Part shown: positions 27,260 to 30,145 of the stretch, one piece after another
How positions within the stretch are numbered: position 1 is the stretch's first letter
How the letters are laid out: every line of letters starts with the position of its first letter
Assembly (NCBI GenBank): GCA_030599055.1
Contig: JAUVOS010000001.1
Coordinates: 1-30,757 of the forward strand
Direction of reading: 5' to 3'
DNA: 30,757 bases
Source of the DNA: Lutibacter sp.
GTDB lineage: Bacteria; Bacteroidota; Bacteroidia; Flavobacteriales; Flavobacteriaceae
Notes under the pieces: generated by a model
What the model was told of the DNA's origin: nothing
Seen by the model: the letters and a program-made list of their open reading frames with translations, nothing else
Databases searched by the model: none
Made by a program: the position numbers and the translations under genes

Positions 27260-29617
27260 TTATTCAATAAGCACATTAAGCCCCTCTTTTCTATCAATTT
27301 CGGCTCTCCTATTAATTTCATTTTCATTAGCTCCTAAAATTCTATTTATTAATTTCATTTTATAATCAGGATCCGATTCTAATTTCTTAAAGAATGGATG
27401 ATTGTCAATATCCACATCAGAATTGCTCAATTGTTTTTTTGCAGAAATGATGCCTTCTTCAATTTGCTCTATTTTTATTTTACGATAGGTAACTGTACGC
27501 GGTTCACTTTCGTTTACACCATCTTCTGTGTTATCAATTTTTTGAATATCTGTTTGAACAGCTTTTACTTTATCAACATCCATTTTTGCTAATAAAATAT
27601 CTATTTTATTCAATCTGGTCTTTAATTCATCAATTTCATTTGCTTGTTTTACAACTAACCTTGTTACATCATTTGCATTGATGCCAACAGCAACATTTAC
27701 ATAGTTTAATTGAGTCGAGTTTGAGGATGACCAAGCTATTCCAACTATCTTTTGATAATCAGCAGCAACTAAACTTTCCGGGCTTTTTGCAATTCCAAAT
27801 CCGTCGTTATTACCACTTGGCAAAATATAATCGCCTTCTTTTACAATTCCACGTACCTTTACAGGCACCTGGCCCATAAAAGCAACTTTTTCATAGGTTG
27901 CCTTCAATTCTTCTTCCGGCATATTTCCCAACACGATTGGGTTACTGGAAACAACCATAATATTTTCAGCGTTCACTGTATTATGGCTAATTTTCCCTGC
28001 TTTAACAGCTACTAAATCACCAGGATAAAATTTATCTGATAAATTGTCTTTTGGCAGCCATTCGGCATAATCACCTGCTCCAGATTGATACGTTACTCCT
28101 ATTTGGGTAAATTTAAAAACATTATATGCAATAGGATTTGCAATAGCCTCTGCCTCATTAGCAATTGCAATAACTTCATTGGCAAGTTTGCAAATTATAT
28201 CGGTAATTGATGCTCCAATTAATGAAGCAATAGGCAAGCACTCAACTGCTACAGCTACTCCCCCAATACCTACACCAGCACCTACACATGTAGTAATAGA
28301 TACATCTGCTGCTACTTGATCCACACCAGCCTGAACAAGTTCTGCGGTAGCTGCTATCAATGAACCACTATTAATTAAAAAATCTGATGCAAAAATTACC
28401 TGATCAAATATATATTCTGGGTTTGTAGCTAATTCGCCACTGGTCTCTCCTTCAATCCTACCTCTAACAGTATTATTATTATCAAAAAAAGTAACAAAAT
28501 TATTGCTATTGCTTGGTGTACCTTGATTTACTTTTATCGCAATTCCCTGATCACTACCTTCAACTCTTAAAGGATAAGCATCATAATCAGCTTCTCCTCC
28601 AGTAACGTTTGCATTAATAGTAACCTGACCTCTAAATTTTGACATTCCTCCTACTACTAAATGATGATCAACCACAACGGAATCACCATGTACTTTTAAA
28701 TTCCCTCCAATATCAACTCCACCCCTTATAGCAATGCTATCGGCAACAAAAAGACCCCTTACATCTGCTAAACTCCCAAATCGCGGAATTGGATCTGGTG
28801 ACACTTCATCAGTTACCACTAACATATCTGTTACAGTACTTGCATCAATATTGATATTTGAGTCAAATTGACTAAAACCATTTACATGAAGATCTCCGGT
28901 AAGCAAAGTAAGGCTTTGATTTTCTACAGTGAAAGGCCCATTATTTATAGTTTCTCCCTCTACAGTATTCAAATAAACATTTTTTGCAACCGTTAGGTTT
29001 TCATCAATGCTTAAACTCTTCTTCATATTAATATCTCCATTACTAAAGATACGCATTCTCTCTTCATCATTAGTTACCAATACAAGGTCTGCATCATCTG
29101 TTGTACCCAGTTTGTCTTTTTCAGGATCAGATTTTGAATTACCGAAAAGTGACCAGTTTTGAGATGGAACTCCACCACCCCCTTTAATCTCATTTCCGGC
29201 ACTTATTTTAGATGCTGTTGCAGCATGAAAAGCATAAGGAACCGTGAGTAATTTGCTAATGCTAACAGAAGTATAATCGTTTTCTTCATCGGTTTTCATG
29301 GCAATATCTATCCAAATATTTCTTGTTTCCCAAGGTATCTCATTAAAGACGCCTTTTTCTATGTTTCCTTGTCCAACTATCAACGAAAATAAACCAAATT
29401 GATTAGTCGTGACATTGTGTATTTCAGTAAAGTAAATTGTAGGTGAATTTAATTCACTTTGAAGTTTAATTTTTAGTGAAATAGGTTGATTTGCAATTAT
29501 TTCACCCGAAAGATCTCTTGCTACCGCCTGATATTTCATCCCTTGCGGTGTTGTTTGCGCATTAAAGGAAAGTATCATTAACAATGATATTATAATGCTA
29601 AAAAGTATTTTTTTCAT
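27260..29617 (-). CDS. Exported tailspike/tail-fibre-like protein with a C-terminal peptidase-G2-like intramolecular chaperone domain
   Basis: Signal peptide ending ...FNA-Q. N-terminal PQGMKYQAVARD...TNQFGLFSL.VG.G...LLTVPYA domain. W.L.GN...LGTTD..DL..TN..ERMRI motif. GAGDYAEW...PGDLV...GQVPVKV.G.V..GDYI.PS...G.G.A region followed by a coiled coil. Confidence 0.65.
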   Translation of the reverse strand: MKKILFSIIISLLMILSFNAQTTPQGMKYQAVARDLSGEIIANQPISLKIKLQSELNSPTIYFTEIHNVTTNQFGLFSLIVGQGNIEKGVFNEIPWETRNIWIDIAMKTDEENDYTSVSISKLLTVPYAFHAATASKISAGNEIKGGGGVPSQNWSLFGNSKSDPEKDKLGTTDDADLVLVTNDEERMRIFSNGDINMKKSLSIDENLTVAKNVYLNTVEGETINNGPFTVENQSLTLLTGDLHVNGFSQFDSNINIDASTVTDMLVVTDEVSPDPIPRFGSLADVRGLFVADSIAIRGGVDIGGNLKVHGDSVVVDHHLVVGGMSKFRGQVTINANVTGGEADYDAYPLRVEGSDQGIAIKVNQGTPSNSNNFVTFFDNNNTVRGRIEGETSGELATNPEYIFDQVIFASDFLINSGSLIAATAELVQAGVDQVAADVSITTCVGAGVGIGGVAVAVECLPIASLIGASITDIICKLANEVIAIANEAEAIANPIAYNVFKFTQIGVTYQSGAGDYAEWLPKDNLSDKFYPGDLVAVKAGKISHNTVNAENIMVVSSNPIVLGNMPEEELKATYEKVAFMGQVPVKVRGIVKEGDYILPSGNNDGFGIAKSPESLVAADYQKIVGIAWSSSNSTQLNYVNVAVGINANDVTRLVVKQANEIDELKTRLNKIDILLAKMDVDKVKAVQTDIQKIDNTEDGVNESEPRTVTYRKIKIEQIEEGIISAKKQLSNSDVDIDNHPFFKKLESDPDYKMKLINRILGANENEINRRAEIDRKEGLNVLIE

Positions 29618-29647
29618 AATAGTTAAGTTTTGTTAATTAAAATATAA

Positions 29648-30145
29648 TTAGTTTTTTATAATTCTGTAGGTTGCTACATTTGTACCTAAAGAGTCTGAGA
29701 TACTCAACAGATAAATTCCAGATGCCAAATAGGTCATGTCAAAAGGAATATTTTGTTCGTTTTCGAATACACTAATAAATTTTAAAAAATTTCCGGCACT
29801 ATCAAATAAATTGATCTCTCCCGGATAATTAAAATCTTTGTGTATTTGAATATTTAATATAGAATACACAGGGTTTGGAAAAATTGCAATATTGACCAAT
29901 GATGCTTGATCTTCTTCATCATAATTCACAATTTTTAAGAATGGCTGGTGAAAACCCTGTGTAAATATTTTGTCGCCGGGAGTAACTGTTTCTGTAAGAT
30001 ATTCTCCCAATGTCCATTCAATAACTATCCCATTAATTTGATAAAAACCTTCCTGAACAGATAAAACAGAAGGTGATAAACTTTGTGAAATTAAATGGAA
30101 TGAGATAAAAAACAATAAAATAGTAATTGACACATTTTTTTTCAT
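29648..30145 (-). CDS. Small T9SS type-A sorting-domain protein (165 aa, likely start MKKNVS at 30145)
   Basis: Signal peptide, a short EWTLGE...TQGFHQP domain, then a type-A CTD (IAIFPNPV...LNI...LASGIYLLSI...TYRIIKN). Confidence 0.82.
   Translation of the reverse strand: MKKNVSITILLFFISFHLISQSLSPSVLSVQEGFYQINGIVIEWTLGEYLTETVTPGDKIFTQGFHQPFLKIVNYDEEDQASLVNIAIFPNPVYSILNIQIHKDFNYPGEINLFDSAGNFLKFISVFENEQNIPFDMTYLASGIYLLSISDSLGTNVATYRIIKN

Follow-up and report, generated by a model that had tools for sequence, protein, structure and literature searches.

Why should a large fibre protein of phage-like build, which carries no signal for the T9SS (type IX secretion system), be encoded directly beside a very small protein that consists of little more than such a signal? 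This question is raised by two genes in a 30,757-nt stretch of DNA from Lutibacter sp. (contig JAUVOS010000001.1 of the metagenome-assembled genome (MAG) GCA_030599055.1), which is called the window here. Gene 1 encodes a signal peptide, a conserved module of about 50 residues, which we call g1N, and a type-A C-terminal sorting domain (CTD) of the T9SS. Gene 2, which follows it, encodes a fibre protein with an N-terminal domain related to the MAT fibres of Bdellovibrio and a C-terminal chaperone domain of the Peptidase_G2 type. Judged by its domains, the module in the window is a G2-chaperone fibre paired with a type-A CTD mini-protein. The reading that we prefer, with a probability of about 0.55, is that g1N is a T9SS-delivered docking partner which anchors, and probably also carries out, the fibre that has no tag of its own.

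Conserved pairing of the two genes in Bacteroidota

To describe the linkage, two surveys were made. The fibre-side survey covered the best 80 of at least 489 G2-type fibre loci in species-representative genomes. The g1N-side survey covered 12-kb regions around g1N matches, which were searched with local hidden Markov models (HMMs) and contained 53 g1N genes, together with a sample of 401 genomes of the phylum. Counts are given without P value because related genomes are not independent.

With the first g1N model, a g1N homologue was found directly upstream of the fibre in 36 of the 80 loci, and most of the other loci contained a small CTD protein with a divergent g1N, recognisable by the motifs ...QSIGQ...RQGF.QP. 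With a broadened model, 62 of the 80 loci were positive, while among the rest 5 had insufficient upstream sequence and 3 had another fibre gene directly upstream. Seen from the other side, 31 of the 53 g1N genes are located directly upstream of a fibre gene and 10 directly downstream, and one gene intervenes in 6 cases; 4 more are found at 0.7-2.3 kb from a fibre, and 2 have no fibre within 6 kb. It turned out that g1N occurs in 55 of the 401 sampled genomes and that the fibre N-domain is present in 53 of these 55. The spacing between the two genes is also kept (about 28-30 nt in loci L003-L006), and the same pair with the same spacing stands among unrelated flanks, namely lysS/MBOAT/sod, a histidine kinase-LytTR pair and ETF/DUF5686. 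The co-occurrence of the two domains across Bacteroidota, which an earlier note on this DNA had proposed to measure, is borne out by these HMM adjacencies (62 of 80 fibre loci and 47 of 53 g1N genes). They show that the pairing is not chance and support the view that the two genes form a conserved functional unit across Bacteroidota.

Which part of the fibre is linked to g1N can be read from the diversity of the partners. The fibres adjoining g1N carry collagen repeats, Peptidase_S74, Phage_depo_C or no recognised C-terminus, and the G2 domain is present in 5 of 64 of them. These assignments support a linkage of g1N that follows the N-domain of the fibre, not its stalk or C-terminus. The G2 chaperone is incidental to the pairing, because most partner fibres use S74 or other C-termini. 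No CTD was found on any of the fibres examined.

A family of small T9SS cargo proteins with little cargo

The identity of gene 1 as a type-A T9SS cargo is indicated by everything that could be tested, namely its CTD, its signal peptide and the presence of the T9SS in the genome. The earlier note had described the protein as a conserved EWTLGE/TQGFHQP module plus type-A CTD and had expected Por_Secre_tail from a domain search. This family (PF18962) was found at aa 88-157 (E 7e-9, 36.3 bits against a cut-off of 27), TIGR04183 matched as well (E 8e-9, 35.4 bits against a cut-off of 23), and the motifs EWTLGE and TQGF.QP are invariant among close homologues. In a search against the PDB, the CTD stretch gave a weak match to 8glk_D, deposited as 'Endonuclease I' (E 1.6e-4). 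The AlphaFold2 (AF2) model of the protein, whose predicted local distance difference test (pLDDT) score is 84, contains the leader helix, four short strands in g1N (31-37, 40-46, 50-54 and 61-65; pLDDT 65-86), a disordered linker and a beta-sandwich CTD (pLDDT >90). As for the machinery, gldK, gldL, gldM and gldN lie in the same window, as had been noticed before, and their matches score far over the cut-offs of all four TIGR models. With the GldN/PorN model TIGR03523, matches were obtained in 98 of about 100 genomes from the class to which the window belongs and in 0 of about 300 others of the phylum; the model is unusable as a phylum-wide T9SS marker, because some of the missed genomes clearly encode Por_Secre_tail proteins.

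Ten homologues of gene 1 share 41-73% identity with it and are nearly all 165 aa long. Since all 10 begin with MKK, the ATG start at 30145 was preferred to a longer TTG open reading frame (ORF) reaching 30247. Ser20 and Gln21 are invariant in the family directly after the hydrophobic leader, and the signal peptide is probably cut just before Gln21. A Gln after the signal peptide is the Bacteroidetes Q-rule, a signature of signal peptidase I substrates (PMC5837995), which is matched by Gln21 after the leader in both proteins. The Sec signal peptides that had been proposed for both are consistent with their hydrophobic leaders and with this residue, which does not vary in the gene 1 family and has a conservation of at least 90% among gene 2 homologues.

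Searched against 1.84 billion proteins, a g1N profile retrieved 6041 cluster representatives (50% identity) at E<=1e-3. Among the best 150, nearly every protein is 160-175 aa long and has the module at aa 25-74, and PF18962 is present in 136 of 149 top members. Because of this number, and because the top representatives are uniform in size, module position and CTD, we regard the g1N proteins as a large, uniform and apparently 'empty' family of T9SS cargo. Gene 1 resembles type-A cargo, which is attached to anionic lipopolysaccharide (A-LPS) after PorU cleavage, in having a bona fide type-A CTD. Unlike known T9SS cargo, it has as its cargo part only a module of about 50 aa without enzymatic or adhesive domain, and the large surface structure is separately encoded and tag-less.

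The fibre protein and its MAT-type N-domain

The NCBIfam model Bdello_MAT_N (NF053851) matched gene 2 with E 8e-6 and 25.7 bits, under its curated cut-off of 60. The same model was matched by 20 of 20 diverse members of the gene 2 family (best E 1e-11) and was the sole NCBIfam match. On this profile evidence, gene 2 is a relative of the Bdellovibrio MAT subfamily and not a member of its curated model. The fibre N-domain is present in 103 of the 401 sampled genomes, and the Bacteroidota fibres with this constant N-domain carry collagen repeats, S74, Phage_depo_C, Slr4 or G2 modules. A search of the ESM Atlas with the N-domain returned only unnamed Bacteroidota clusters, and no description of MAT-like fibres in Bacteroidota was found in the searchable literature.

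According to passages of Caulton et al. 2024 (PMC10769870), the N-domain directly follows the signal peptide in 21 of 21 Bdellovibrio MAT fibres, these fibres are surface-exposed, and the binding partner proposed for the N-domain is a surface element yet to be identified. Passages of both MAT papers (PMC10769870, PMC12428579) contain no named partner of this domain. Like the fibres of Bdellovibrio bacteriovorus described there (e.g. Bd3182 and Bd2133), gene 2 has a signal peptide followed by a conserved beta-rich N-domain, belongs to long fibres with interchangeable stalks and tips, many members of which end in a self-cleaving phage chaperone, and is not part of a phage. Unlike them, it comes from a different phylum, one possessing the T9SS, has a chaperone of the G2 (gp12) type instead of the S74 type, and is tightly linked to a small CTD-tagged protein.

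The gene 2 family is large (at least 755 homologues), and its at least 489 loci in species-representative genomes are nearly all from Bacteroidota, including Flavobacteriales, Cytophagales, Chitinophagales, Saprospiraceae, Sphingobacteriales and Bacteroidales. Among the carriers of the module that can be cultured are Spirosoma luteum DSM 19990, Telluribacter humicola KCTC 42819, Flavivirga jejuensis KACC 14158, Winogradskyella wandonensis CECT 8445, Hymenobacter properus BT439 and Fibrella rubiginis. In the AF2 monomer model of gene 2 (overall pLDDT 77), residues 27-122 form a confident beta-rich N-domain and residues 508-645 a confident beta domain (both pLDDT >90), while the stalk has moderate pLDDT as a monomer and consists of length-variable repeat blocks in the family alignment. 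No CTD family matched gene 2, in line with the absence of a T9SS signal claimed before; its C-terminus is predicted to be helical instead (residues 708-785), with the conserved motif G.D...HPF..KL..DP.YK. In homologues P0017, P0022 and P0027, a second HPFFKK stretch is located within a C-terminal extension of about 100 residues.

The G2-type chaperone and its predicted cleavage

For the beta domain near the C-terminus of gene 2, the top Foldseek matches were 3gqh_A (E 3e-4, template modelling score 0.57 normalised on target), the C-terminal fragment of phi29 gp12, and 3suc, the pre-mature gp12. A profile of the gene 2 family matched 28nb_A, the chaperone domain D4 of the Dpo31 tailspike (E 4.6e-5), 3gqh_A (E 5.9e-4) and 6qz9_A, another chain named Pre-neck appendage protein (E 4e-3); a direct sequence search of gene 2 against the PDB gave nothing useful. 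Roughly one in four of the listed homologues carries a precomputed match to the Pfam family PF11962, which reached 18.4 bits on gene 2 itself against a gathering threshold of 25 (E 1.5e-3). The Peptidase_G2-like match that the earlier note had expected at aa ~516-650 was therefore obtained from structure and profile searches, on which the assignment rests, because the protein's own Pfam match is under threshold.

The motif D516-Y-A-E519 is invariant in 108 of 108 homologues, and the profile aligns D516 to residue 1 (DFAE...) of 3gqh_A and to GSDYAEYF of 28nb_A. From the alignment to residue 1 of the gp12 fragment, the cut is predicted exactly between G515 and D516, where the DYAE-led domain had been proposed to be processed. 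These comparisons support the assignment of the C-terminal module as a self-cleaving intramolecular chaperone of the phi29 gp12 type, with cleavage predicted. Gene 2 shares with phi29 gp12 (MEROPS G2, PF11962; 3GQH, 3SUC) and with Dpo31 D4 the same fold, an aligned D-x-x-E motif and the position of the chaperone domain at the C-terminus of a fibre or spike. Unlike gp12, it is cellular and predicted to be Sec-exported, has a helical hairpin before the chaperone, and carries a coiled coil and a helical domain, about 135 aa extra, after it. This coiled coil and helical domain would be released along with the chaperone.

In the structure model, the mature fibre would then end distally in the helical hairpin. 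A loop rich in Gly, Ala and Val, which includes Cys444 and Cys460, forms the tip of the hairpin; C444 is at least 90% conserved, and the loop consensus is C.G.GA...C.PIPSLIA. The loop is longer in gene 2 than in most homologues. For a tip that binds receptors, it is unusual that the hairpin region is conserved and not hypervariable. A membrane anchor was considered for the hydrophobic stretch at aa 438-470 and rejected, since most homologues have only a short Cys-bracketed loop there.

Variants of the module

The surveys revealed several forms of the module that go beyond the earlier note, as do the MAT type of the N-domain and the mostly non-G2 partner fibres; the type-B CTD with PorP/SprF and the beta-barrel form are the variants concerned. 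Some g1N members carry an unrelated type-B CTD (CHU_C) in place of the type-A domain, and the next gene belongs to the PorP/SprF family in 5 of 5 such loci checked (E 1e-44 to 1e-77). PorP-like proteins anchor type-B T9SS cargo at the surface (PMC9143113, PMC12618676), and the order of type-B g1N and PorP/SprF is the known arrangement for type-B cargo with its cognate anchoring partner, like SprB-SprF and PG1035-PorP (PMC9143113, PMC12618676). In one long run of genes (L089:58-14001), an 872-aa protein, an S74-type fibre with collagen repeats (1348 aa) and a Phage_depo_C fibre (1006 aa) are followed by g1N with a type-B CTD (283 aa), PorP/SprF and an 818-aa gene, which looks PorE-like by its N-terminal sequence only. 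This run is similar to operons described in F. johnsoniae for static type-B anchoring.

In a three-gene variant, the small g1N-CTD protein is followed by a protein of about 220 aa and then by the fibre (loci L061-L063, L065, L066, L073, L076, L077, L079, L081, L082 and L084-L086, and further L114, L131, L142 and L144). Matches of the ~220-aa family to outer-membrane beta-barrels are weak, with one member over the OMP_b-brl cut-off and one under it, and no NCBIfam model matched the family above E 0.003. One of these modules (L081, contig CAWJWM010000020.1) comes from a MAG labelled Verrucomicrobiae, which could be due to mis-binning or horizontal transfer; all others are from Bacteroidota.

Larger g1N proteins were found as well. 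For instance, L107:249-7966 includes a 1694-aa T9SS cargo with FN3 and PKD_6 domains, in which g1N stands immediately before the CTD, and its gene is located 51 nt downstream of an 860-aa G2-type fibre gene. It follows that g1N can belong to a large surface protein yet remain fibre-linked. Besides, four proteins of about 300 aa (L091:4284-5216, L098:3047-3955, L099:2996-3937 and L094:3564-4454) consist of a signal peptide, g1N and a C-terminal region of about 200 aa with an HRNHLAVMS motif and dockerin-like DxNxDG repeats. Pfam matched no family in them, CTD included. We considered that they might be fusions to an outer-membrane barrel and rejected this, as the alignment shows the dockerin-like repeats instead. 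In L098 and L099, the g1N gene is one of the few without a fibre gene directly next to it.

Proposed docking model and its alternatives

From the domain content, the homology with N-domains of MAT fibres and with chaperones of the gp12 type, and the conserved pattern of gene linkage, all of which are observed, we infer a series of steps that comprises trimerisation, cleavage, binding of g1N to the N-domain, co-export, anchoring and function as an adhesin. Both proteins would be exported to the periplasm by Sec. Gene 2 would trimerise there into a phage-type fibre on its C-terminal G2-type chaperone, which would cut between G515 and D516 and release aa 516-785 (chaperone, coiled coil and helical tail). 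The MAT-type N-domain of the fibre may then dock onto the g1N of gene 1, and the gene 1 CTD would take g1N through the SprA translocon, most likely with the fibre bound. The PorV/PorU route would remove the type-A CTD, and g1N would be fixed to the surface by A-LPS linkage, while in the type-B versions it would be held at the surface by PorP-like partners. The fibre would finally stand on the cell as an adhesin with the helical-hairpin tip outward.

We favour this docking and carrying of the fibre because the linkage is conserved, g1N tracks the N-domain and g1N is built for T9SS delivery. It is favoured also because the architecture of L107 is linked to a fibre, no fibre has a CTD, MAT fibres are surface-exposed, the chaperone assignment is supported and the T9SS is encoded in the same contig. 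Stated as a general mode of the T9SS, in which a ~50-aa module with a type-A or type-B signal carries pre-assembled trimeric fibres and then anchors them, the idea is a tentative proposal, possible and somewhat short of probable.

Hitchhiker (piggyback) export is familiar from the twin-arginine translocation (Tat) pathway, in which signal-less hydrogenase subunits are carried by a tagged partner. If our model is right, the module resembles it in that a tagged partner would take a folded protein without a tag across a membrane; unlike Tat hitchhiking, another machine and another membrane would be used, and the tagged partner would be a dedicated mini-adaptor which is also the final anchor. No hitchhiker or piggyback case for the T9SS and no T9SS substrate anchored via a separate tagged adaptor were found in the searchable literature, and searches on the T9SS with tail fibres or S74, and on secretome data, returned nothing on the g1N module there.

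Several points weigh against the docking model. No adaptor-carried T9SS cargo is described in the searchable literature. Of the 75 informative loci with a G2-type fibre, 10 lack a g1N gene within 4 kb, and many N-domain-positive genomes score g1N-negative at E<=1e-3; five such loci were inspected, and a small CTD protein was directly upstream in 5 of 5. Some g1N proteins lack a Pfam-recognised CTD and have a dockerin-like end. Since MAT fibres are displayed by Bdellovibrio, which lacks a T9SS, this system is in principle not needed by the N-domain. A 1:1 ESMFold2 prediction of the N-domain with g1N gave an ipSAE of 0.02 with a poorly folded partner (pLDDT ~36) and no controls, a score which is listed here on the adverse side and which the tool counts as neither for nor against. 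Lastly, adjacency cannot separate a carrier from an anchor only or from a co-regulated accessory.

In the first of these alternatives, g1N would be secreted by the T9SS alone as a surface receptor, and the fibre would cross the outer membrane otherwise, possibly by the Bdellovibrio MAT route or by the ~220-aa beta-barrel of the three-gene variants, and dock from outside. We consider this unlikely. It agrees with the surface exposure of MAT fibres in a phylum without T9SS, as given in passages of the MAT papers (PMC10769870, PMC12428579), and with the presence of the ~220-aa family, one member of which passes the OMP_b-brl cut-off, between the g1N and fibre genes in many loci. The type-B versions with PorP/SprF and the PorE-like gene of L089 likewise fit a known static arrangement for surface anchoring. 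However, a barrel gene is absent from the two-gene form in the window, the module has no other exporter linked to it, and assembly before export would be the simpler path because both proteins are made together in the periplasm.

Alternatively, g1N may be a co-expressed secreted factor for assembly, capping or regulation that does not tether the base of the fibre; it could be a helper of the tail-fibre-assembly type or a competitor blocking the fibre. Any functional coupling would agree with adjacency alone, no interface was returned by the complex prediction (for a 1:1 complex with a poorly folded partner), and g1N is very small, with four strands of pLDDT 65-86. What makes this explanation rather improbable is that g1N tracks the invariant N-domain and not the variable tips, where helpers and receptor-binding accessories act. 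Moreover, two fibres in tandem can be served by one g1N gene (L089 and G079), and g1N is fused to surface-targeting signals of either type.

The two genes might also encode unrelated secreted proteins that are merely co-transcribed, with the fibre periplasmic or released, and there is indeed no direct evidence of interaction; the linkage holds, however, across orders, gene orders, CTD types and flanking contexts, and together with the N-domain in all but two of the g1N-positive genomes the linkage counts make this very unlikely. That gene 2 is a tailspike left by a degraded prophage, as the gp12-type chaperone (a phage hallmark) and the duplicated lysS tail bracketing the cassette like an inserted element might suggest, is hardly credible given its signal peptide and Gln21 in agreement with the Q-rule, the lack of a meaningful match to PHROG families for either protein (best E 0.033), the flanking lysS, sod and groEL genes, its single copy per genome, and the chromosomal occurrence of its family in hundreds of species.

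Genomic setting and acquisition of the cassette

The earlier note was accurate on the layout of the pair (Table 1): both genes are on the minus strand, their coordinates were checked to leave a gap of exactly 30 nt, and a single terminator-like hairpin stands after gene 2. A pattern scan found no terminator-like site between the genes, and the lysS terminator hairpin sits upstream of gene 1. Taken together, these features make the pair look like one transcription unit. Each gene is single-copy in the 2.29-Mb MAG, the flanking genes include lysS, sod and groEL, and the closest named relative is a Lutibacter MAG (locus L003). In a search of sequencing runs, DNA of the window recurred in cold-seep and marine-sediment metagenomes; the matches were DNA only, with no RNA runs among them.

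Table 1. Features of the gene pair and of its surroundings in the window
Feature	Position	Strand	Description
Gene 1	29648-30145	minus	165 aa; ORF and translation; signal peptide, g1N module, linker, type-A CTD
Gene 1 signal peptide (aa 1-21)	30083-30145	minus	hydrophobic leader; predicted helix aa 3-19
g1N module (aa 22-72)	29930-30082	minus	motifs GG...EWTLGE...TQGFHQP; invariant columns
Type-A T9SS C-terminal sorting domain (aa 86-165)	29651-29890	minus	PF18962 and TIGR04183
Inter-gene spacer	29618-29647	minus	30 nt
Gene 2	27260-29617	minus	785 aa; ORF; predicted Sec-exported, CTD-less, phage-like fibre protein
MAT-type N-terminal domain (aa 22-135)	29213-29554	minus	beta-rich, directly after signal peptide
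Stalk (aa ~150-395)	28433-29170	minus	beta-helix-like repeats; repeat number varies among homologues
Long helical hairpin (aa 400-504)	28106-28420	minus	helices 400-438 and 464-504 (AF2)
Peptidase_G2-like intramolecular chaperone domain (aa 505-648)	27674-28105	minus	Foldseek and profile matches
DYAE motif (D516-E519)	28061-28072	minus	invariant; predicted self-cleavage between G515 and D516
Coiled coil (aa 649-679), variable linker and conserved C-terminal helical domain	27263-27673	minus	AF2 and alignment
Terminator-like hairpin with T-run	27197-27160	minus	16-bp stem, then TTATTTTTTA; 63 nt beyond gene 2 stop
149-nt direct repeat, proximal copy	30537-30685		genuine 3' end of lysS; repeat search
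149-nt direct repeat, distal copy	26784-26932		duplicated lysS tail, far side of cassette
gldK, gldL, gldM, gldN (T9SS core)	10284-15053	minus	TIGR03525, TIGR03513, TIGR03517, TIGR03523

The cassette is bracketed by two copies of a 149-nt direct repeat, which share 90% identity, are 3753 nt apart and enclose exactly genes 1 and 2. In alignment, the proximal copy corresponds to the last part of the tRNA-synt_2 gene at the Lutibacter MAG locus; the distal copy has a diverged 5' part and is located inside a 71-aa ORF. In the Lutibacter MAG, the cassette stands at the same site, and of lysS only the terminator hairpin (53 nt) is duplicated. An integrase gene was not seen between the two repeats. 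Because a duplicated lysS tail or terminator hairpin brackets the cassette in both MAGs, the arrangement fits an acquisition of the two genes as a single unit.

Implications

The pairing suggests, without proving, an undescribed way of mounting fibres on the cell surface. Each of the T9SS substrates described in the searchable literature has its own C-terminal signal. If the docking model is true, widespread large fibres that borrow the signal of a mini-partner would represent a new logic of T9SS export and anchoring, and thousands of 'empty' CTD proteins which are currently unassigned would acquire a role. Besides, g1N is a concrete candidate for what the invariant MAT N-domain binds, a question left open in passages of the MAT work (PMC10769870). 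Across Bacteroidota, the interchangeable fibres would then be surface organelles of a plug-in kind. Since the base is constant and the stalks and tips vary as a mosaic upon it, the module could provide environmental and host-associated Bacteroidota with a general platform for adhesion, for recognition of prey or hosts, or for adhesins linked to gliding. It may also serve as a scaffold for surface display.

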